A stretch of 37,264 nucleotides of DNA from a virus. Below, in pieces: positions 50 through 36,808 of this stretch. The notes beneath the pieces are model-generated. The model did not search any database. It had not been told where the DNA came from and worked only from the letters and a program-made list of their open reading frames with translations. Numbering within the stretch: position 1 is the stretch's first letter; every line of letters starts with the position of its first letter. The stretch lies in UHGV virus genome UHGV-0087839, one strand, 5' to 3'. The position numbers and the translations under genes were made by a program.

Positions 50-190
50 TTACTGCTTACACTGTAAGAACGCCGCAAACTCCGCTCCCCAGAAGCTCAT
101 CCGTATTTCACACAGCGAACCGTGCAACATCCAGATGATGAGGATTGCCGTCACGCAGAACGTGATGGCCGTAAGCGATTTTTGCGACAT
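50..190 (-). CDS. hok: Hok/Gef-family type I toxin (46 aa), absent from the supplied ORF track
   Basis: Reverse-strand translation MSQKSLTAITFCVTAILIIWMLHGSLCEIRMSFWGAEFAAFLQCKQ: N-terminal hydrophobic helix followed by the SLCEIR...E.AAF motif typical of Hok/Gef peptides; stop is followed by a stem-loop. Confidence 0.6.
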   Translation of the reverse strand: MSQKSLTAITFCVTAILIIWMLHGSLCEIRMSFWGAEFAAFLQCKQ

Positions 191-380: not shown

Positions 381-641
381 TTAATTCTGAGGTAAAGGCA
401 AGCTCATCTGATTGTTTCCCCTGTGTGAAGCTGGCAGCTCATGCCACGGGATACCTTCTGAAGAGTGAACGCCGGAGGTGTGTTTCGATGTGAATTTATG
501 GAAAGCTTCCAGTGTTGAGAAGCATACGCCGCATTCCAGATTGTTACACTGGTAATACTTTTGCCGTACGGTGTTTGAATCATTTTCCGGGCGACTAGTG
601 CGGATACGGGCAGATGCGCCACAAAGCGGACAACGGAACAT
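381..641 (-). CDS. ogr: Ogr/Delta-family zinc-finger late transcription activator
   Basis: Translation starts MFRCPLCGASARIRTSR...YYQCNNLECGVCF, i.e. CPLC...C..C zinc-finger pattern closely resembling P2 Ogr; GGGAGG ribosome-binding site upstream of the ATG. Confidence 0.85.
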   Translation of the reverse strand: MFRCPLCGASARIRTSRPENDSNTVRQKYYQCNNLECGVCFSTLEAFHKFTSKHTSGVHSSEGIPWHELPASHRGNNQMSLPLPQN

Positions 642-953: not shown

Positions 954-1511
954 TCAGATTAGGGCTATCTGCTGATTATTTAGCTTCTCCAATCTTTCAG
1001 ACAGTTTTATCTTATCTTCAACTTTTTCCAGCGATGATGCTGACATAAAGCTAATCAGCTTATCAATATCTTTAGGTTCTTTGATAAGAACAAACTCCCT
1101 TGTCTTATTAATGAAAACAGCTGAGTTTTTCTTTCTTGATAGCAACTCAATGACGTTGCTCAGTGTTCCCGGACTTTTTGTATCCCAAACCATAAGGCCA
1201 CAGTCTGCTGTTTCTGCCATCTTTATATCTTTGGCTGTGTAGAAATCTCGAGTTCCGGGTCGGAAGTTTGATTTAACGAGTTTCACGGGCCATGCACCAA
1301 AATTGTTTCGTGGCTTGGCATCACTAGTGAACACAGTGGTTGCGCTATAACCCAATTGTTTTAGTTCCAGCTGTACGGAAGAGTCAACGCCAGAGGCGTC
1401 ACCGACGATAACATTAAAGTTCTTGTCAACAATCTTCTTTAAGCGCTCAACGATAAGCGGGTCGAGCTTTTTAATGGTTATCGAGCCAGCAACGAAAACT
1501 GTCGTTGTCAT
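954..1511 (-). CDS. Rossmann-fold protein with SLOG/DprA/LOG-like signature (tentative); second gene of accessory cassette
   Basis: 185-aa ORF; N-terminal VFVAGS...VIVGDASGVD glycine-rich strand-loop pattern resembling DprA/YpsA/LOG (SLOG) nucleotide-binding domains; AT-rich relative to phage backbone; GGAG ribosome-binding site 6 nt upstream of the ATG; start 2 nt after the stop of the upstream gene. Confidence 0.6.
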   Translation of the reverse strand: MTTTVFVAGSITIKKLDPLIVERLKKIVDKNFNVIVGDASGVDSSVQLELKQLGYSATTVFTSDAKPRNNFGAWPVKLVKSNFRPGTRDFYTAKDIKMAETADCGLMVWDTKSPGTLSNVIELLSRKKNSAVFINKTREFVLIKEPKDIDKLISFMSASSLEKVEDKIKLSERLEKLNNQQIALI

Positions 1512-1513
1512 GG

Positions 1514-2101
1514 TTATCTCCAGGTTAGTGCTGCTACATAAATTTTATTGATTTTATTATAACCGCGTAACGCTGTAACTGCAGCTTCCATGGATGCTCC
1601 TGTATGGAAGAGATCATCAACGATGAGGGCATTAAAAGGGCCATCCCCGACAATTTGGTTTTGATAAGAAAAAGCGTCAGCAACAGCAGCTTCTTTCTCT
1701 TCTTTAGTGTTCAGATTTTTCAAAGACACGCCACCAGGTGCTTTGATTAATAACTCATTGAAGCTAAACATGTTATTTCCCATTTTTGATGCCAGAGCGT
1801 CAGTAATTGCTGTCACGGGTTGAATTTTTCGAACATTTGAAGCTGCCATTGGGATGATTAATTGTATGTTTTGAAAAAGAGGCACAGCATTAACTAATAG
1901 GCACTGGGCAAGCGCATCAACTTGGTCCATGTCATTTTGATATTTTAACTGGTATACGGCTTCTCCAACCTCCGTGCGATCGTTTTGAAACATAGGCTTG
2001 CCATACTCGTTATCACCTAAATAAGTACTCTTAATCAAATGCTTATCCATCGCGTAACCTAAATCCCAGTTACCCGTAATTGGCTTGATGTTTACTTTCA
2101 C
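1514..2101 (-). CDS. Phosphoribosyltransferase (PRTase, ComF-like) domain protein; first gene of accessory cassette
   Basis: 195-aa ORF with C-terminal PRPP-binding signature ALIVDDLFHTGASM (hydrophobic-DD-hydrophobic-x-TGxT); GTG start preceded by AAGGAAAG; AT-rich. Confidence 0.75.
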   Translation of the reverse strand: MKVNIKPITGNWDLGYAMDKHLIKSTYLGDNEYGKPMFQNDRTEVGEAVYQLKYQNDMDQVDALAQCLLVNAVPLFQNIQLIIPMAASNVRKIQPVTAITDALASKMGNNMFSFNELLIKAPGGVSLKNLNTKEEKEAAVADAFSYQNQIVGDGPFNALIVDDLFHTGASMEAAVTALRGYNKINKIYVAALTWR

Positions 2102-24787: not shown

Positions 24788-26992
24788 TTACGTGTCGAGA
24801 GAAATTTGTGTGCGCAGTTGAATAGGATTCAGAATTGTATATCGCTGGCGAATAACATTATATAAATCAAAGTCTTTTACCCTTACGCTTATTACCATCG
24901 CATATCGCATATCAGGGGCTGAAACTCCCTTAACATGGCGCGAAGAATCTCGGGCATGATACCGTATATCAAAAACTGGATCGCTTAATAATGTATCAGC
25001 ACTGAACTTTTTGCTTCTGTGCAAACAAGTTTCCCACTTATGACCTTCACTCCTACACTCCCTTTCAGTCTTATACTGGCTTTTTTGACCAAAGAAATCA
25101 TCTGTATCGGTATCGTCAAGGCCGAATCTTGGGCGGAAAGTTACCTGCATACCGGCCCTTGTATAGTTTACTGAATGTTCAGGATCTACTGGGGTTTGAA
25201 TGCATAAAGTAGCGGTAAGCTCAAATGCTTCGTCAAAGGGAACATCAGGGAATGGGATCGGTGCCCTTAAATATTTATTTTTTGCTAATGAACCATAGTA
25301 AATTACTGTAGCAGTATCATTTGGACAATCGATTAAAACGTTAGGATCCTCACTAAACCGTCCCCAACCGATATGTTCACGCGAATATTTTCTTGATGTT
25401 TCAGCATGATGAACAAGCAACGCTTTCAATGCAATGGTGTTCAATGGAGTTCCTGATAGAGCCGCAACTCCAGCGGCCGTTCTCAATGCTAATGGAGAGG
25501 CATAACTGGTTCCTTGAACTCCAACTATAGAACCAAGCAGAGGGTTGTAAGTGTAAAAAGGCTCGTCGTCGCTTCCACCAAAAATAACACCATCAGGTTT
25601 AACGAATCCGGGGCTTCTGCCTGGCCCAATACAGCTATATGGTGCCCGCCCCCATTTTTCATCGCTACGATCAGCAGCACCAATCGCTAGCGCGTTTACC
25701 ATATCAGAAGGAGGTTGTATTCTCGCTGCATCACCGTCCTCATTGCCATCATTCCCAACAGCAACAGTAAGTAATATCCCATGTTTAGCACAGATTTGGT
25801 CTAAAACAGCAGTCCATACATGAACCTCATCATCACCAATTGGAAGATGAGGACCAATACTTAGATTAGCGAACTTATAGTCACCACTATCAAGAACGGA
25901 CTGTATTTTCTTAAGGACATCAAATAAATCCCAATTGCCATTGTCACCTGATGTCGGTGAAAGAACTCTATAATGATCTACATTCATAAACGGTCTTTTA
26001 AAAGAAGGTGCATTTTCCTCGACACGTCCGAATAAGAAAGTGGATGTCACTTCATTACCGTGCTGCAATAATAATCCGCTTGTTTCTTTGGTGTCTGGAT
26101 ACACGTATTCCGTAACCCAATTACTCAAGTCAGCTGTCCCCAAGCCACCATCAAAAATGGCAATACGTTCGGATTCAAGAACAGCTTTAGAATTAGGGAG
26201 CTCCGGTGTAACTATATTAGATAACTTTCTGACAATGTTCGGCTGAGTACACCTGAGAGACGGCATCGGCCGCACAACGCGGATTAATGAAAAATCGAGT
26301 GTTTTTTTCATATCTTCAGGTCGCGCGTGTGCAACGATGAAAGTCAGCCCACCAACTTGGATTCTACTTTTGTAATCAACAGAGACATCATATTGTGCCG
26401 CATAGCTAATATAGGCTTTAACGATATCATCGTCTTCAACCCCAGCATGAAGAACCACTTCAAATTTTATCAAATCACTTTTCGCATGCTCAAAATTGCG
26501 TGCTCTCTCTTTTCCTTCAAAAAAGCTAACACTTTCAATTTCGATCAAATCCTTTTGTACGCCCTTCGGAGCTGTAGGGGAATTTAAAATTTCCTTAAAT
26601 CTTATAACGGCATCATCATCACCGCTAACAAACAGTTGCGCCGTTACTAAGTCCTTATTCTGATCGCACTGACGTGCCGCTTTCCGTGGGCGAATGATTA
26701 CCTGACGGCTACCGACATCCCGTAAACCTGTCGCTCTAAGCAATCCTTCCGGAAAGTAGCTTTTACCCAAAAACGCTGGGTGTAAAGTTAAATTGAATAC
26801 ACTCTCCCCCCTTGGCTTAGCCGCATCATCCAAACTGCGAAAGCGTGAGAGTAAAGTATCAATCTCTGGGTTTAAATGCTCCCTTACTTCTTCAAGAGTA
26901 TAGGGATAGCGCTTACCATCCCTTCCTTTAGGCAAAGGTTCCTTTTTTGTCAGAACATGACCGTTACCTAAAAGTAAGTTCCTTTCCATCAT
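24788..26992 (-). CDS. Subtilisin-like serine protease (peptidase S8) with N- and C-terminal extensions
   Basis: 734 aa; ordered Asp (IAIFDGG), His (VHVW) and Ser (GTSYASP) catalytic motifs plus oxyanion GN; AT-rich; start overlaps the upstream ATPase stop (ATGA). Confidence 0.8.
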   Translation of the reverse strand: MMERNLLLGNGHVLTKKEPLPKGRDGKRYPYTLEEVREHLNPEIDTLLSRFRSLDDAAKPRGESVFNLTLHPAFLGKSYFPEGLLRATGLRDVGSRQVIIRPRKAARQCDQNKDLVTAQLFVSGDDDAVIRFKEILNSPTAPKGVQKDLIEIESVSFFEGKERARNFEHAKSDLIKFEVVLHAGVEDDDIVKAYISYAAQYDVSVDYKSRIQVGGLTFIVAHARPEDMKKTLDFSLIRVVRPMPSLRCTQPNIVRKLSNIVTPELPNSKAVLESERIAIFDGGLGTADLSNWVTEYVYPDTKETSGLLLQHGNEVTSTFLFGRVEENAPSFKRPFMNVDHYRVLSPTSGDNGNWDLFDVLKKIQSVLDSGDYKFANLSIGPHLPIGDDEVHVWTAVLDQICAKHGILLTVAVGNDGNEDGDAARIQPPSDMVNALAIGAADRSDEKWGRAPYSCIGPGRSPGFVKPDGVIFGGSDDEPFYTYNPLLGSIVGVQGTSYASPLALRTAAGVAALSGTPLNTIALKALLVHHAETSRKYSREHIGWGRFSEDPNVLIDCPNDTATVIYYGSLAKNKYLRAPIPFPDVPFDEAFELTATLCIQTPVDPEHSVNYTRAGMQVTFRPRFGLDDTDTDDFFGQKSQYKTERECRSEGHKWETCLHRSKKFSADTLLSDPVFDIRYHARDSSRHVKGVSAPDMRYAMVISVRVKDFDLYNVIRQRYTILNPIQLRTQISLDT

Positions 26993-28071
26993 TTAATCCC
27001 CCACTTTTGTAATTTATTCGCGATTGTTGGATGTGAAACACCAACTAATTCAGCTATCTTCCTATTTGAAAAACCGTCAAAATGATATTTAATTATATTG
27101 AGATCATTATCGCTAAACTCATCCAATGAAACCCTCTCCGTAATTACGGCTTCTATTAATGAGCTTTCAAATGGAATATTTCTAAGTACCTCATTCTTTT
27201 TGGAGAAATTCAAAATACGGTTAATGATGGCAAAGGACATGCCATCTAATAATGGTGCAAGTTTTTTAGATAGTTCAGGTTCAATATTATGATTGACTAA
27301 ATATCTATCTATCAGTTCTACTGATGGCATATTAAATTTAAGGATGTGCTCAAATCGACGCCAAACAGCCGGATCTAAGATATCAGGGTGATTAGTCGCA
27401 GCAACAAGAAGCGAGGTCGCTGGCCACTCATCTATGGTCTGTAGGAGTACAGTAACTAAACGTTTTAATTCTCCAACGTCCCTGTCATCATCACGTCTTT
27501 TTGCAACAGCATCAAATTCATCAAGCAAAAGGACACATGGTTTCTCTTTGGCATAATCCATAACGGATTTAATATTATTACCTGTTTTTCCCAAAAGAGA
27601 ACTCATTACAGATGAGAGATCCAATGTTAAAAGAGGTAAATTTAACTTTGCAGCAAGCCAATGTGCGGACATTGTTTTGCCTACGCCTGGCGGGCCAGAA
27701 AGTAAAACCGTCTTCACAGGTTCAAGACCAGCTTTGAACAAAGAAACCGCATTCTCTCTTTCGTTAACAATTGACTCCAGCTTCTTTGAGATATCCGTAT
27801 TCCATACAGGTTCTTCAACAATTGCGTTGACAGATGTTTCCTGCAAAAGGTTTCGTCTGGAGTCTCCATCCACAGGCATAGGAGCCTTACTAGATGCCCC
27901 ACGTAATACTGTTCCCTCAGCAACTAACGAAGCCAGCTTAGAAGCTAAAGCCTCATCATTTTTACGGATGTTGTTAATCATCTTTCTGCATAGGAGTGTA
28001 AATGCATTTGCGTTGCCTTTGATGCCTTGCTCGATGAGTTTGAAAAGTTCATCCTCCCTCACGTTTACCAT
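26989..28071 (-). CDS. AAA+ ATPase with C-terminal helix-turn-helix
   Basis: 360 aa; Walker A GPPGVGKT, Walker B VLLLDEFD, second region of homology ATNHPDILDPAVWRRFE; C-terminal NRKIAELVGVSHPTIANKL HTH-like segment. Confidence 0.85.
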   Translation of the reverse strand: MVNVREDELFKLIEQGIKGNANAFTLLCRKMINNIRKNDEALASKLASLVAEGTVLRGASSKAPMPVDGDSRRNLLQETSVNAIVEEPVWNTDISKKLESIVNERENAVSLFKAGLEPVKTVLLSGPPGVGKTMSAHWLAAKLNLPLLTLDLSSVMSSLLGKTGNNIKSVMDYAKEKPCVLLLDEFDAVAKRRDDDRDVGELKRLVTVLLQTIDEWPATSLLVAATNHPDILDPAVWRRFEHILKFNMPSVELIDRYLVNHNIEPELSKKLAPLLDGMSFAIINRILNFSKKNEVLRNIPFESSLIEAVITERVSLDEFSDNDLNIIKYHFDGFSNRKIAELVGVSHPTIANKLQKWGIK

Positions 28072-28449
28072 AAAACCCCCAATAAAACATCAGCTTGTGT
28101 AAGCTGGTAACTACATTAATGAAAATCATTGACTAATGTTACCACTCTTGCTGGCGTAATTCAAAGAGTATCCTCACTTTTTTACTGTATGGATAATCAG
28201 CATAAAATCTATCCAGTTGGGTTACTCGAACATACTGTCAATACTTGTTTCCAACGATTGATCAGTTCTACAGTTTTATCTCCTTCACTTGTGTTGGCAG
28301 CATGCTTATTCCTGAACCAGCTCGATTACTTGGCCATTTGAGAAAGATGTGTAGGTCTTCTGATGGTTTGTATTGGAACGGGGTGCATAGTGATTTGCAC
28401 CCCGTTCTTTATGTTATGGGGTTGGCGGCAGGGCGAATACGCCCTGATG

Positions 28450-28761
28450 TTATTCAGGAAATAACGCCCGGATATTTCCGGCCATCTGACTGGTTATCTG
28501 TGCGGTTGATACTGGCTGTGACGCGGGGCGTTCTGTCTTGGTTTGTGTCACTGATAACACCTCATCATCAGCCCATGCAGCCAGTCGGTAAGCCTCTGCC
28601 GGATTCATTTTCAGAAGTGCCAGCCCGGCCAGAAAAGCCACGCGTTGGCCGCTTTTGCGGGCTTCTGGTGTAAGGCTGTCCAGCCAGGCGCATGCTTCTC
28701 CTTCGTTCTTGACGGCGGTGGGCTTCAGATAGAAACTTATCCGTCTGGTTGGAGTCGTCAT
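28450..28761 (-). CDS. parR: ParR-like partition adaptor (ribbon-helix-helix)
   Basis: Translation from the internal ATG (MTTPTRRISFYLKP...AWLDSLTPEARK...AFLAGLAL) resembles plasmid R1 ParR; AAGGAG ribosome-binding site; follows parM by 4 nt. Confidence 0.7.
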   Translation of the reverse strand: MTTPTRRISFYLKPTAVKNEGEACAWLDSLTPEARKSGQRVAFLAGLALLKMNPAEAYRLAAWADDEVLSVTQTKTERPASQPVSTAQITSQMAGNIRALFPE

Positions 28762-28765
28762 TGGT

Positions 28766-29725
28766 TTACTCCTTGTCCATTGCGTACAGCCCATTAACCA
28801 GAGCAAACTGTGGCACCCCGTCCGCGATGAAAGTCGCATTAACTCCGCAGGCTTCGCGGATAGCGGGTGCCACAATCTCCGCCCCTCCACCGACAACCAT
28901 CACCCGCCCGTAACCCGAAAAAACCGCCAGCGCGCGGATCACGCGTTGTTTCAGTGTTTCTTCCTTTTCACGAATAACCGCCATCAGGCTGGCGTAATGC
29001 GCGTCATTGTGGATGTGCTGGCGCAGCCAGGCTTCATCATGGCGATGTTCGATAATGGTATTGGCGATGTGATGACTGGTGCGCATACCGTTAGTGGCCA
29101 TCACCGACAGTACGGCATCGGCCATCAGAGAAACGCCTACGTGTGGATCGCAAAACACCTGGCTGATACCTGCCAGTTGCCCCTGAACCTTTGCCACATC
29201 CAGCGTGGTTCCGCCCAAATCCACAATCAGCAGGGATTCAAACGGACTCATGTCAGCCAGTGCCTTAAAGCCAGCCGGAATGGATTCAGGCATAACCCGC
29301 ACGTTACGGATAGTGAATGCCTCACCGTTCTGGTACTCCACCGGGCGCATAACGTTCGCTTTTTTGCGGTTGATGTTGGCCATGTCCGGCTGGGCGTTAG
29401 TGTCGAAATATTCGCTCAGTGGCAGGGTGACAACCACATCCACTTCCTGTGGCGTGATGCCTGATTTGACCAGCGCGTGATGAATGGCAATGACATTCAC
29501 ATCGCTGTACTGGTATTGCGTGTCGGTCGTCTGGACAAAGCGATCGCTGACCGGATCAAAACCATAGCGCACGCCATCAAGCATGTAGTTCGCAGGCTGC
29601 GAGCCACCGAACGGCGCAGACCATTCCGACTTGAAGCTGTTCGGGCTGATGGCGTTGCGGCGTTCGCCGTTTTCAGTCCATGCCAGCTTGATGTTGGTGG
29701 AGCCGTCGTCGATACAAATTTTCAT
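28766..29725 (-). CDS. parM: ParM/StbA actin-like segregation ATPase
   Basis: 319 aa; strong collinear resemblance to R1 ParM (IDDGSTNIKL, ISPNSF, QYSDVNV.A.HHAL, ERKKAN, TI..VKVMPESIPAG, SLLI.DLGGTTLD, GVSL, SGY..VMV.GGGAE). Confidence 0.85.
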   Translation of the reverse strand: MKICIDDGSTNIKLAWTENGERRNAISPNSFKSEWSAPFGGSQPANYMLDGVRYGFDPVSDRFVQTTDTQYQYSDVNVIAIHHALVKSGITPQEVDVVVTLPLSEYFDTNAQPDMANINRKKANVMRPVEYQNGEAFTIRNVRVMPESIPAGFKALADMSPFESLLIVDLGGTTLDVAKVQGQLAGISQVFCDPHVGVSLMADAVLSVMATNGMRTSHHIANTIIEHRHDEAWLRQHIHNDAHYASLMAVIREKEETLKQRVIRALAVFSGYGRVMVVGGGAEIVAPAIREACGVNATFIADGVPQFALVNGLYAMDKE

Positions 29726-29760
29726 GTCGATTTTCCTTATGTTGGTTAATTAACCGTTTA

Positions 29761-29851
29761 CGGGATTTTTAAATCCCGCTTTCGCCTGTTTTGTGCGCGC
29801 TTCATATATCGCGGCGCGTTTTTTGCTCATTTGCGGGATTTGTGAATCCCG
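29761..29851. promoter_or_regulatory. Candidate parC-like centromere/promoter: two 18-bp palindromes CGGGATTT..AAATCCCG about 73 bp apart upstream of parM
   Basis: CGGGATTTTTAAATCCCG (29761..29778) and CGGGATTTGTGAATCCCG (29834..29851) read directly; the second lies inside the 3' end of gene A. Confidence 0.4.
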
Positions 29852-32669
29852 TTTCTGTCTGTTTTTTGTTGCCACTGGTCAGGCTACCCCGCAGCAGGTC
29901 TGCTTTGCGGCGGGCGCGTTCAGTGGTTTCACTGATTCTCTGTGCGTGCTCTGCGTCACGAATGGCGCGCAGCATGTCAGAAAGCACGGTAACGGGTGTT
30001 TTCATGGTGTTCTGGTCCTGCTGAAGTGTGGATGCCAGGCGTGCGGCGGCTTCGGGGTCTGATGCCCCGAGCTGTGCCAGATAGCTGGCGACCGGGTTAT
30101 GGCGGATCTCCGTGCTGCTTACGCCGTGATTACGGCTCAGGCGCTGCCAGAGCTGCGTGATTCGGCTGTCCGGGCGGGTATCCGGTTTGCGTACAATTTC
30201 AAATCCCTGCGGTGCAATGATGCTGCCGTCAACGTACAGGCTGCCGCCCCGTAACAGGTGCTGCATCTGCTGTTCACCGATATGCAGGCCGAGAGATTCG
30301 GCAGACTCCCGCCATTCTTTAGCGAGTAATTCGTGGTTATCAGGCAAAGGCTGTGGCTGTTTGCGGCTCTGTGTCCAGTTCTGCATTTCATCACTGCTGT
30401 TTTTGGCCTGTTTGTCACGCAGCGAACGCATCAGTGCCCGGCGTTCGTGCCGTTTCAGTGAGCGCATCCATTCATTCACTTCAATGCCGTCAGGGAGCTG
30501 CGGCCACGGTGCTGGCCGTTCTTCCGGCTGTTCTGTCCCGTTGTTGTCCGTTTCCTGTACACGGGGACAGTTATTGCCACGAGTCCAAGGGGCGGCAGGG
30601 CCGCCCTGAAGGTCAAAACCATTTTCGCGGGCGCTGTCTTCCGCTTCCGGTTTACGTCTTACCAGCTTCCAGTTATCCGGATGCGTGCACACACGGGAGG
30701 ATTCCCCGATGAGTGGTGACCAGATCCCGTAAATCTGTACGCTCTGTTCGCCGTAATCGTTCAGCTCATCTGCGAGGTCGTAGGCAGTGCGAATCAGGTA
30801 GTCTTTGCGTGGAACAAGTACGCCGCCCTGTTTTTCAATGTAGGTGGCAAAACACCCGGCATCGGCGGCAGCGAGTACCGCATCCATTGCGTCATCCTTC
30901 AGCCGTTGCGGGCCTTCCGGGTTGCGTGCCATCTGGCTGGCAAGGCGGCGCAGTTCACGCCACACCTGACGGGAGGGGATGCCAAAGAACTGGAACTGGC
31001 GGACCCGATGAAGGCGCGCCCAGCCGATGGCGCGCTCCACGCTCTCGGCCATTGATTTTCCGGTTTCGTGGTCAACGCGTGGTTTGCCCGTTTTCGGATC
31101 GATTCCATCCACGGCGCGGCTGTCCAGGTTTTTTCCGATGTAGGTGGCGATGTAGCTGGTTGGCGTGCCTTTGGAGCCGTCGACGTACTCCACCTTAAAG
31201 CGCGGAGTAATATCATTGCCCAGCTCGTGGCGGTCTTCCTGAATGGCAATATCGCGGGTGATGGCCACGATGCTGTCGATTTCTTCCGGATGAGCAAAGA
31301 CCATCATATGCCAGTGCACGGTGCCGTCATGGTGAGGCTCCACCGTGCGGATGCCATACCAGCGCAGGCCGTCGCGGTTCAGTTTTTTGCGGACCGCCGC
31401 AAAAAACGTGTTAACCAGGTAATCGCTGGAGTCGCGCATGGTGGCCCCGTTCCATTTGGGATTCGGATGACCGTTCTCTGTTGTGGCGTGGTATTTTGAC
31501 GGGCAGGTGACAGTCAGAAACACCGCTTTGTCGCCACGGGCTTCGGCCAGAAGTTCCAGTCCCTTCATGGTGGCCATCATTTCTGCCTTACGGTGAACCG
31601 GGTTACTTACTCCCGCGTAATACACTGTCTCGAGATCAATCGTGAAGCCGTCTTCGTTTTCCAGTTCGAAGCTCTTCAGGAAGTCGCGGGTTTTCTCGCG
31701 CTGTGCGCGAAACTCGCTTAACGCGTCCTGGCTCAGATAGGGTGATGTTTTTCTGGAAACCAGACAGGCGGCGCGGAGTTGTTCTTCTCTCCACTCACAA
31801 CGTAACAGCCACAGTTTGCGTTTCCACCAGTCCGCACAGGTCAGGCGAAGGATTGCGCCCGGCAGCAGCTCCGTGTCCGGTTCGTTCCTCCGGTCTTTGT
31901 CTGTTGTCAGTGCGTCATAATGTGGAGGCATGGCGTGCAGGTGTAACGCCATGCGGGCCAGCATCTGATACGCCTTCAGCGTTACATCCATGGTCAGTTC
32001 GCCATCAGTCGCGCCAAAGCCATAGCAGAGTTTTTCGAAGGTGCTGCTGAACATCGCCGCCGTCATGGTGGCCAGCGTCTGTATCTGGTGTTTGTTGAGC
32101 TGCGGCAGGTAAAGCAAATCGTCCAGGCGTTCGCGTCCGGCAAGGGAGCGATAACCCGGTGTCAGCCAGCGGTGATCGGTGCGGTCCAGACGTTCGAATA
32201 TTTTGCGCAGGGTTCCGCGCGCGTAGCGTTCAGCCTGCCAGCTCTTTTTGCCTTTCCGGCGATCGGCTTCCTGTTTTTTGCGCAGGAAAGAGAGGTGGCG
32301 GCTCAGAGGTTCACGCAGATAAACGGGAAGCACCTTCAGTGTGGCAAAAGCACGGGCCATCGGGTCTTGTTCTGTTGCCTGACGCTTGCTGATGATGCTT
32401 TGTGCCAGCTTTTCACGCTGTCCGGCTTCCTCAAGGGATGCCATGAGTTTTTTACCCACGGTGGATTGTGCGAAAAAGGCTTCCTCCTTCGCTTCCTGTT
32501 CTTCCAGAGCCTTTTTGTCTGCCTCAAGGTAGTAACGGATGGCGCGTTGCAGGTCGGTTTCAGTTTCCTGCCTGTGCTCCGTAAATCTGGCCGGATCAAT
32601 GGCTGGCCGTGGTTCATTCCAGCTCCATGCAAACTCATTCATGGCTGGTATCCTGTCACGCGCTGCCAC
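29802..32669 (-). CDS. A: Replication initiation protein gpA (rolling-circle HUH endonuclease), 955 aa
   Basis: Large ORF at the P2 A position with HWHMMVFA HUH-type motif; longer than P2 gpA as I recall it. Confidence 0.8.
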   Translation of the reverse strand: MAARDRIPAMNEFAWSWNEPRPAIDPARFTEHRQETETDLQRAIRYYLEADKKALEEQEAKEEAFFAQSTVGKKLMASLEEAGQREKLAQSIISKRQATEQDPMARAFATLKVLPVYLREPLSRHLSFLRKKQEADRRKGKKSWQAERYARGTLRKIFERLDRTDHRWLTPGYRSLAGRERLDDLLYLPQLNKHQIQTLATMTAAMFSSTFEKLCYGFGATDGELTMDVTLKAYQMLARMALHLHAMPPHYDALTTDKDRRNEPDTELLPGAILRLTCADWWKRKLWLLRCEWREEQLRAACLVSRKTSPYLSQDALSEFRAQREKTRDFLKSFELENEDGFTIDLETVYYAGVSNPVHRKAEMMATMKGLELLAEARGDKAVFLTVTCPSKYHATTENGHPNPKWNGATMRDSSDYLVNTFFAAVRKKLNRDGLRWYGIRTVEPHHDGTVHWHMMVFAHPEEIDSIVAITRDIAIQEDRHELGNDITPRFKVEYVDGSKGTPTSYIATYIGKNLDSRAVDGIDPKTGKPRVDHETGKSMAESVERAIGWARLHRVRQFQFFGIPSRQVWRELRRLASQMARNPEGPQRLKDDAMDAVLAAADAGCFATYIEKQGGVLVPRKDYLIRTAYDLADELNDYGEQSVQIYGIWSPLIGESSRVCTHPDNWKLVRRKPEAEDSARENGFDLQGGPAAPWTRGNNCPRVQETDNNGTEQPEERPAPWPQLPDGIEVNEWMRSLKRHERRALMRSLRDKQAKNSSDEMQNWTQSRKQPQPLPDNHELLAKEWRESAESLGLHIGEQQMQHLLRGGSLYVDGSIIAPQGFEIVRKPDTRPDSRITQLWQRLSRNHGVSSTEIRHNPVASYLAQLGASDPEAAARLASTLQQDQNTMKTPVTVLSDMLRAIRDAEHAQRISETTERARRKADLLRGSLTSGNKKQTETGFTNPANEQKTRRDI

Positions 32670-35475: not shown

Positions 35476-35784
35476 ATGCTTATCGGTGAAAAAATTAGAG
35501 TGATTCGTGAATCAGAGGGTTTAACGCGCGAAGAATTTTGCGGCCTGATTGATGTGCCTATCGGCACTTTGCGTCGTTATGAAACGGGGCGGATTGAAAA
35601 CATAGGGGGCGAAGTGCTTATCAAGATTGTTAATCACCCTCGCTTTTTTAAGTACATGAATTGGCTTATGACAGGAAAAACGAATGAGGCTGCTGGGCAG
35701 ATCAGTCCCTCTCTCTCCCCTGATGGGCCAGAAAACACATCGTCTTCTCAAAAGCCCCGCAAGACTGGTACACAGCCCGGCTAA
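35476..35784 (+). CDS. C: Immunity repressor C
   Basis: Translation from the internal ATG (MLIGEKIRVIRESEGLTREEF...) resembles P2 C repressor (ISEKIVLMRKSE.L.R..L, GQI.P.L motif region). Confidence 0.8.
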   Translation: MLIGEKIRVIRESEGLTREEFCGLIDVPIGTLRRYETGRIENIGGEVLIKIVNHPRFFKYMNWLMTGKTNEAAGQISPSLSPDGPENTSSSQKPRKTGTQPG

Positions 35785-35833
35785 TCATGGAACGCTGGGG
35801 GCATGGTGGTCTTGTAACGCTGGGGTTTCACGA

Positions 35834-36808
35834 ATGAGCATAAAATCAATTCCGGGAGGGTATCTTCTTGACATGCGCCCGGAGGGGCGTAAAGGCAAAC
35901 GCATTCGCAAAAAATTTAAAACGAAATCGGATGCAGTTTTATATGAGCGGTGGGTGCTGGCGCAACAGCATAACAATGAGTGGAAAGGAAACTCCATTGA
36001 TCGCCGCCCGCTGTCAGTGCTTATTGACTTGTGGTGGAAATACCACGGTCAGCTAATGAAGTCAGGGCATAACACGCGCCTTAAATTGCTGCGCTTGAGT
36101 GAGGCAATGGATGACCCGTGTGTGCATAAACTTAATACAACGATGCTCACCGAGCTACGTGTGTCCAGGATAGAGCAGGGGATACAGCCCAGCACCATTA
36201 ATCGAGAGATTGGGGCGTTAAGCGCGATGTTTACCGCACTCATCTCATCCGGCCATTTTCTTAACGATAACCCCGTTCAAGGCCTTAAAGGAATGAAGGT
36301 TAACGAGCGCGAAATGGGATATCTGAGTAAGTCTGAATGTGTTCAGTTGCTGGATGCACTGGCTGAAAATCCCGATGAACGGCTGGCTGTCGAAATCCTT
36401 CTGTCGACCGGGGCGCGATGGGGCGAGGTAGCGGCACTGGAGCAGCGCCGTGTTCTTCATTGTCGAATCACTTTTTCAAAAACGAAGAACAGCAAAAACC
36501 GTACCGTTCCTATTTCTGAAAGCCTGTTTGAAAAGATCAAAAAACGGGGCGGGAAACTGGTGTTTCCGACGCTGGATTATCCATTAGTTCGCGATGTCAT
36601 CAAAACGGTCGCACCTGATGTTCCTGACGGCCAGGCTGTTCATGCGCTGCGCCACACCTTCGCCAGTCATTTCATGATGAACGGCGGCAATATTCTGACG
36701 CTCCAGAAAATTCTGGGGCACGCAAAGATTCAGACAACGATGATTTATGCCCATCTTGCGCCGGATTACTTGCAGGATGCGGTGAGATTTAATCCTATTG
36801 CTGGGTAA
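35834..36808 (+). CDS. int: Tyrosine integrase (P2 Int-like)
   Basis: 324 aa from ATG at 35834; C-terminal HxLRHT...Y catalytic region (HALRHTFASHF...MIYAHL). Confidence 0.9.
   Translation: MSIKSIPGGYLLDMRPEGRKGKRIRKKFKTKSDAVLYERWVLAQQHNNEWKGNSIDRRPLSVLIDLWWKYHGQLMKSGHNTRLKLLRLSEAMDDPCVHKLNTTMLTELRVSRIEQGIQPSTINREIGALSAMFTALISSGHFLNDNPVQGLKGMKVNEREMGYLSKSECVQLLDALAENPDERLAVEILLSTGARWGEVAALEQRRVLHCRITFSKTKNSKNRTVPISESLFEKIKKRGGKLVFPTLDYPLVRDVIKTVAPDVPDGQAVHALRHTFASHFMMNGGNILTLQKILGHAKIQTTMIYAHLAPDYLQDAVRFNPIAG

Follow-up and report, generated by a model that had tools for sequence, protein, structure and literature searches.

Why should a phage that integrates into its host chromosome carry a segregation system of the plasmid type? 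This question is raised by a stretch of 37,264 nucleotides, UHGV virus genome UHGV-0087839 (the whole of which is referred to here as the window), in which a preliminary description, made from the letters alone, had recognized an R1-type ParMRC partition module within an integrative P2-like prophage. On balance, we favor the view that this parMRC is a resident, working type II segregation system of P88-like phages, one that would act on phage circles outside the chromosome, such as arise upon infection or excision. The features that carry the argument are as follows:

28450..28761, minus strand: parR, encoding a putative centromere-binding adaptor of 103 amino acids and starting 5 nt past the parM stop codon
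28766..29725, minus strand: parM, encoding an actin-like segregation ATPase of 319 amino acids with Pfam, structure and PHROG matches
29757..29795, minus strand: candidate parC repeat 2, intergenic, comprising an A-rich tract and a 16-bp palindrome, GGGATT-TAAA-AATCCC (core at 29762-29777)
29830..29868, minus strand: candidate parC repeat 1, in the last codons of gene A, an A-rich tract plus GGGATT-CACA-AATCCC (core at 29835-29850)
29802..32669, minus strand: gene A, encoding a P2-type replication initiator/nickase of 955 amino acids, directly upstream of parM and with parC repeat 1 in its 3' end

In order to establish what the two small genes encode, their products were compared with protein families and with known partition proteins. 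In Pfam searches, ParM matched StbA_N (2.1e-82) and the ParM C-terminal domain (6.3e-69), both profiles being covered whole, and ParR matched PF10784 (Plasmid_stab_B; 6.7e-24). The matching PHROG families were 691, "partition protein" (3e-90), for ParM and 2515 (2e-58) for ParR, both of which are classed as partition proteins. By phmmer, residues 2-316 of ParM matched the R1 ParM structure 1MWK with an E-value of 6e-93. The protein was 47% identical to R100 ParM over its full length (BLASTP), 53% identical to the ParM of an IncL/M plasmid and 48% identical to that of the phage-plasmid D6. The motifs DDGSTNIK, DLGGTTLD, GGGAE and PESIPAG, which serve nucleotide binding and hydrolysis, are the same as in R1/R100 ParM alignments, and the nucleotide-binding motifs thus appear intact. 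The collinear similarity to R1 ParM and ParR that had been noticed for these two minus-strand reading frames is therefore correct: the profile searches, which the preliminary description had named both as its check and as its possible refutation, assigned the products to the true ParM and ParR families and not to non-partition actin or Hsp70 families.

ParR is the more divergent of the two when compared with R100, with 34% identity confined to the N-terminal 56 residues. Its layout was nevertheless well defined in an alignment of 19 lineage members (52-94% identical), in which residues 1-64 are near-fixed, a linker of about 28 residues is variable and the last eight residues are conserved. RRISFYLKP was invariant in this alignment, together with N96, I97 and P102, and the C-terminal tail N-I-R/Q-x-L-F-P-E/D was kept in all 19 members; the tail motif is common to the ParR proteins of IncL/M plasmids and D6. 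Such a pattern is as would be expected if DNA binding and the capture of ParM were both under selection. No match to ParR was found among PDB sequences at E<=1. A model of the ParR monomer, built from a 22-sequence alignment, was of low confidence (mean predicted local distance difference test score, pLDDT, 58); it placed a helix at residues 86-100 and lacked the expected N-terminal strand, because the monomer was modelled. Foldseek comparison of this model with the PDB returned noise only. The N-terminal ribbon-helix-helix of ParR is accordingly described here as putative, its membership of the ParR family being indicated by sequence.

The candidate centromere lies directly upstream of parM, and the order parC-parM-parR is as the preliminary description claimed. 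One palindrome, CGGGATTTTTAAATCCCG at 29761-29778, is intergenic, and the other, CGGGATTTGTGAATCCCG at 29834-29851, lies within the 3' end of gene A, so that the two copies of the consensus GGGAYT-N4-ARTCCC straddle the gene A stop codon (29802-29804). Each palindrome forms the core of a 39-nt direct repeat, and the repeats are 73 nt apart from start to start i.e., about seven helical turns. The site thus comprises exactly four half-sites, without degenerate extras. No third match to the palindrome was present in the window at <=3 mismatches (0.26 expected; two were reached in 2 of 100 shuffles), and no other repeat families were found near parM. A 41-amino acid open reading frame (ORF) with a GTG start (29750-29875, minus strand) runs across the end of gene A in a different frame and closes with ...AGFKNPVNG, much as the product of A ends in ...TGFTNPANEQ. 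It is probably no gene, and rather a by-product of the 73-nt duplication behind the two parC repeats.

We next asked how widely this arrangement is kept. A pattern scan of viral contigs for the palindrome pair, which selected on the palindrome arms, yielded at least 120 loci, 104 of which were scored for geometry. Among the matches listed, gene A lay upstream and parM downstream of the pair in 119 of 120 viral contigs, the remaining one being an unrelated G+C-rich match. In all 104 scored loci the palindrome of repeat 2 ended 36 nt before the parM ATG, and in 99 of them the gap between the palindromes was 57 nt. In the Hafnia loci, both palindromes and their spacing are kept though the flanks and the 3' end of gene A have diverged, with A stopping earlier. 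The two palindromes upstream of parM that had been proposed as ParR-binding sites are thus real and conserved beside it, one inside gene A and the other intergenic, and we regard them as good candidates for such sites.

The same loci allowed the palindromes to be weighed against other functions. ParM and ParR might form a working pair whose binding site lies elsewhere or is less obvious, the palindromes themselves being weak terminators, RNA stem-loops or sites for some other protein. On the plus strand they can be drawn as hairpins of -9 to -10.5 kcal/mol with U-rich tails, one of which was called terminator-like, and a type II centromere of only two sites would be small beside that of R100. 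On the other hand, no plus-strand genes need termination there, and stronger hairpins already lie past parR. Position 5 of the palindrome arm is changed from T to C in 27 of the 104 scored loci with no compensating change in the stem, as is more easily understood for a site bound by protein than for an RNA stem. The spacing of about seven turns and the distance to parM are fixed, the predicted DNA-contact strand of ParR is invariant, as are the half-sites, and there is no rival repeat family nearby. We therefore consider it quite unlikely that the centromere is to be sought elsewhere.

Comparison with known centromeres delimits what is R1-like in this locus. The parMRC system of R1 and R100 (parA/stb, IncFII) shares with it the protein families, the gene order, the three-part layout of ParR and the placing of the cis site, a candidate one here, directly upstream of parM. 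The centromere differs, however: that of R1 and R100 consists of 11-bp direct iterons in two clusters with a promoter between them, whereas the present one is a pair of 16-bp palindromes at a distance of 73 bp, in which the scan detected nothing resembling a promoter. The setting differs as well, R1 and R100 being low-copy plasmid replicons and the present element an integrating phage, in which one of the sites falls within the coding sequence of replication gene A. The label "R1-type" thus applies to the proteins and not to the centromere. The phage-plasmid D6, which resembles P1, likewise has a ParM of the StbA family with a StbB-type adaptor gene downstream, but it is a genuine plasmid prophage and its upstream repeats are of a TCTCA type rather than GGGAYT palindromes. 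The centromere repeats of IncL/M plasmids also depart from this palindrome layout.

The surrounding element is a P2-family prophage, as had been proposed. Gene A matched Phage_GPA (7.3e-130, Pfam) and PHROG 91, "nicking at origin of replication", and the integrase (35684..36808) has Int_N and Phage_integrase domains. Outside variable segments, the window is syntenic with phage P88 in blocks of 91-97% identity that take in the structural, lysis and replication genes and parMR; the phage is P88-like, of the genus Xuanwuvirus in the Peduoviridae. P88 and other Xuanwuvirus members (phiSM, P884B11, 520873 and 503458 among them) carry the same cassette in the same place (DNA 93-97% identical), and P88 differs from the present phage in mosaic parts only i.e., the hotspot cargo (IetAS here), the tail fibre, the immunity/integrase region and a two-gene insert by ogr. 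Among sequenced phages, this type of ParM was limited to these P88-like phages (95-99% protein identity) and, more distantly, D6. To our knowledge, phage P2 itself has no partition system.

Within the P88-like lineage, the pair is a constant feature. parMR was detected in 1307 of 5426 complete E. coli genomes, about a quarter, including those of the enteropathogenic E. coli (EPEC) strain E2348/69 and of O157 strains, and a P88-type gene A was present at >=80% query coverage in 1355. In every locus examined, A, parM and parR were followed by variable cargo or none and then by the portal gene Q, the cargo beginning after parR or within its 3' half. This fixed order makes parMR part of the lineage and not hotspot cargo: it is a fixed core pair at the inner, A-proximal edge of the P2 tin/old hotspot. 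The alternative offered in the preliminary description, that a plasmid-derived module had been recruited into the old/tin hotspot, does not agree with this position or with the counts of parMR and gene A. Recent capture from a known plasmid was also rejected, the best plasmid DNA matches outside phage-containing records having about 66% identity over 38% of the query. ParR relatives were found in Escherichia, Cronobacter and Hafnia; records from Citrobacter and Salmonella likewise contained related cassettes. One contig from the assembly of a Gram-positive genome, labelled Vagococcus sp. (NZ_JBQPOM010000071.1), encodes an enterobacterial ParM with 98% identity and shares the upstream region too; it is most likely a contamination or a mislabelled assembly.

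parM is under strong purifying selection. Its ratio of nonsynonymous to synonymous substitution rates (dN/dS) against relatives was 0.04-0.09, the Hafnia copies (dS 0.57) included. The full 319-amino acid ORF was present in 79 of the 104 scored viral loci, contig ends cutting most of the others, and a premature stop was seen in three (133 amino acids in two, 35 in one). A segregation motor of the plasmid type is thus fixed and strongly selected in a prophage lineage of about a quarter of complete E. coli genomes. For parR, dN/dS was 0.23-0.45, and in some pairs its dS was up to about 10-fold that of the adjacent parM (0.87-1.2 vs. about 0.09; in one example, 0.87 vs. 0.10). A recombination boundary thus lies within parR or immediately ahead of it, where the variable region begins. 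At least two types of ParR, about 52% identical, occur behind near-identical parM and parC (loci L003 and L006). Given this mosaicism, the recombination breakpoints of the hotspot extend into parR.

Such a position at the edge of a hotspot invites another explanation, namely an accessory role of the moron type, in which parMR would serve exclusion of, or incompatibility with, plasmids or superinfecting phages, or anti-phage defence. The defence hotspot adjoins parMR, with IetA and IetS immediately downstream, and the mosaic parR, with its raised dS, behaves as genes at hotspot edges often do. Against this, the presence and position of parMR are fixed and not variable, and neither ParM nor ParR matches a PADLOC model; since the pair is moreover near-universal in the lineage, we rejected it as defence cargo of the A-Q hotspot. 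Plasmid ParR proteins are too distant for shared sites (ParR matched seven plasmid records, and the six that could be judged are P88-like DNA), and the centromeres of R100, D6 and IncL/M plasmids carry other repeats. Conservation of the cis site beside parMR argues instead for action on the DNA of the phage itself, and we give an accessory role only a slim chance of being correct.

The same observations bear on whether the locus does anything at all today. It could be a decaying, functionless relic of a plasmid or phage-plasmid ancestor, given that integrated elements need no partition and that the papers searched report no function for it. This is very hard to reconcile with the dN/dS of parM and the number of loci in which its ORF is complete, or with the conservation of the functional parts of ParR and of the cis sites across copies from five genera (Escherichia, Salmonella, Citrobacter, Cronobacter and Hafnia), and we give it almost no weight.

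In order to consider when parMR might be expressed, we analyzed its transcriptional context. On the minus strand, gene A is followed by a 76-nt spacer, parM, parR and two G+C-rich hairpins:

28429-28446, no strand assigned: G+C-rich hairpin, terminator-like, just downstream of parR, where the cassette ends and the variable hotspot starts
28375-28408, no strand assigned: second G+C-rich hairpin of the same kind and at the same border

Homology to P88 and other relatives picks up again at 28408-28429. No terminator-like site was found between A and parM on the minus strand, and a crude consensus scan of 28200-30200 found no sigma-70-like promoter. Inspection by eye gave poor candidates only (TTTAAA-N17-ATTAAT, 8/12, which is not conserved in the commoner TTTCAG variant). 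parMR comes last in the early replication operon and, as far as this crude scan can tell, has no recognizable promoter of its own.

The places that parMR occupies in complete genomes indicate the state in which these phages are usually found. Across the 5426 E. coli genomes there were 1453 chromosomal places and 2 plasmid places. The preliminary description had suggested looking for extrachromosomal copies in assemblies, and one circular record, NZ_CP148288.1 (locus L001; 34,461 bp), is a complete P88-like genome with its integrase. Its start and end, however, coincide exactly with the attachment site (att) crossover, and a sister strain has a phage of 99.9% identity integrated next to pdxB (L138; NZ_CP148378.1, 2666387-2687854). 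The phage of these two strains inserts at the 5' end of pdxB, whose first codons it replaces with its own. The circular record fits an assembly-graph loop of an excising prophage.

The other matches labelled as plasmids were records of 0.2-1.4 Mb and a linear record from Shigella boydii (26.8 kb), in which the phage genes are interrupted by IS1. ParR itself was found in seven plasmid records only (tblastn, E<=1e-3), of which five have gene A beside parMR, a sixth has P2-type phage genes and the seventh has only ParM and ParR under the match. In the IncC conjugative KPC plasmid pC-Ec2-KPC (NZ_MK439959.1; locus L016), rearranged P88-like pieces that include A-parM-parR are bounded by IS26, indicating that insertion sequences moved the phage cassette onto a real plasmid.

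These records are central to the possibility that P88-like phages are facultative phage-plasmids, which would persist as low-copy circles over many generations, for example when the att site is missing or occupied, and would rely on ParMRC and perhaps a hok-like locus for stability as R1 does. P88 has been flagged as a two-state candidate (Pfeifer et al., 2021, PMC7969092). The circular record is a whole P88-like genome with int, a hok/gef-like gene lies on the same phage and on P88, the true phage-plasmid D6 has a related ParM, and parM is strongly selected. The chromosomal and plasmid counts argue the other way, as do the opening of the circular record at the att crossover and its integrated counterpart beside pdxB. 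The remaining plasmid matches are huge records, an IS1-interrupted linear record or, where inspected, IS26-scrambled pieces. Integrase was kept in every copy examined, and replication would, to judge from P2 biology, hang on gene A, the only replication gene seen, in a repressible early operon. Stable plasmid lysogeny of P88-like phages is rare at best, and we consider the facultative phage-plasmid unlikely. Of the episomal states that the preliminary description had put forward, the maintenance of excised or replicating copies remains the best reading, while a stable phage-plasmid finds little support in these counts.

How, then, might a resident segregation system serve an integrating phage? 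P2 replication gives monomeric circles, which are the packaging substrate, and a plasmid-style motor is therefore plausible here. The lack of a recognizable promoter of its own, the lack of a terminator after A and the mostly integrated state lead us to infer that parMR is expressed with the early genes, and hence would be active on circles after infection or excision. Dimers of ParR would bind the four GGGAYT half-sites, the ParR tail would capture the ends of ParM filaments, and growth of these filaments would push pairs of circular phage genomes apart. In this way, the system would spread or position the monomeric circles that arise from P2-type replication and prevent the loss of an excised copy when the cell divides, with no long-term plasmid prophage being maintained.

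More tentatively, we propose that ParMRC belongs to the lytic or establishment programme, ParR loading onto the two-palindrome site after excision or infection and ParM spreading the monomeric circles. If true, this would raise the burst size, or the survival of the excised or unintegrated copy through division, and would be the first demonstration that a genuine ParMRC of the plasmid class takes part in the life cycle of an enterobacterial phage that integrates, one present in roughly one in four E. coli strains. In a bolder variant, ParMRC and the hok-like locus together would let the phage live as a true plasmid prophage where the attachment site cannot be used.

Several points weigh against a working system of this kind. 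The scan selected on the palindrome arms, so that their invariance in the at least 120 viral loci is by construction and the evidence is limited to geometry, linkage to parM and the Hafnia comparison. With two palindromes, the centromere would be far smaller than that of R1, which has ten iterons, and it may be doubted that a comparable ParR-DNA complex forms on them; the plus-strand hairpins described above count on the same side. The crude promoter scan could have missed a ParR-regulated promoter in parC, such as R1 has. Finally, P2-type phages without ParMR replicate well, so that any benefit would be modest or conditional.

Two known systems provide precedents for segregation functions in integrated elements. 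The srpMRC system of SXT/R391 is expressed only on activation and was shown experimentally to stabilize the excised circle (Carraro et al., 2015, PMC4489591). Like the system described here, it is of the ParMRC class, is fixed in a normally integrated element and belongs to an element that replicates by a rolling-circle relaxase or nickase. It differs in that SrpM and SrpR are distant from the R1 proteins whereas the present ParM is close, and in that SXT/R391 elements are conjugative and not phages. In the Corynebacterium glutamicum prophage CGP3, AlpAC/alpS is induced early and is needed for efficient replication of phage DNA (Donovan et al., 2015, PMC4446434). The likeness lies in an integrated prophage with an actin-like filament former, a DNA-binding adaptor and adaptor sites upstream of the operon. 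AlpC, however, is a distant actin-like protein outside the StbA family, the gene order and adaptor family are different, and CGP3 is a large, cryptic prophage of a Gram-positive host. If parMRC acts on phage circles, it would extend the SXT/R391 and CGP3 findings to a common enterobacterial phage, and the candidate parC, with its four half-sites, would be a very small natural centromere for the study of ParR-ParM complex assembly.

The parMRC genes of P88-like phages are already known, having been annotated and discussed in the phage-plasmid literature. GenBank and RefSeq name ParM and partition protein genes in P88 and in E. coli chromosomes, and the D6 record itself notes a likeness to the StbA of P88. 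The phiSM copy was listed as a plasmid stability protein (Magaziner et al., 2019, PMC6456863), and P88 was reported to have partition genes though integrated and possibly to have both states (Pfeifer et al., 2021, PMC7969092). Literature searches turned up no experiments on ParMR in phages of the P2 or P88 type. What is added here is the fixation of parMR in the lineage, a description of a minimal site of two palindromes and of how it is conserved, and evidence that favors a transient over a stable extrachromosomal role.

Other genes of the window include defence and toxin candidates:

26989..28071, minus strand: IetA-type AAA ATPase (PADLOC IetA, 3.6e-89)
24788..26992, minus strand: IetS-type S8 peptidase (PADLOC IetS, 2.1e-41)
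50..190, minus strand: Hok/Gef-family toxin ORF of 46 amino acids (PHROG 251, "MokW-like host killing", 1.3e-22), beyond ogr (381..641)

The first two make up the hotspot cargo (24788-28071, minus strand) between parR and the cos/Q end, and form an anti-phage pair of the IetA/IetS type. Their scores are well under the NCBIfam equivalog cut-offs, which marks them as a divergent variant. The hok/gef-like gene is also carried by P88 and by the circular record NZ_CP148288.1; the two classic stability loci of R1, parMRC and hok/sok, thus both have relatives in this lineage. Between ogr and the tail gene D lies the two-gene insert (954-2101, minus strand) that P88 lacks. One of its genes encodes a phosphoribosyltransferase-like protein of 195 amino acids with a weak PADLOC match to PsyrT (1e-7, to the C-terminal part of the profile), and the other a protein of 185 amino acids with no Pfam match; the two may form a small toxin-antitoxin or defence pair.

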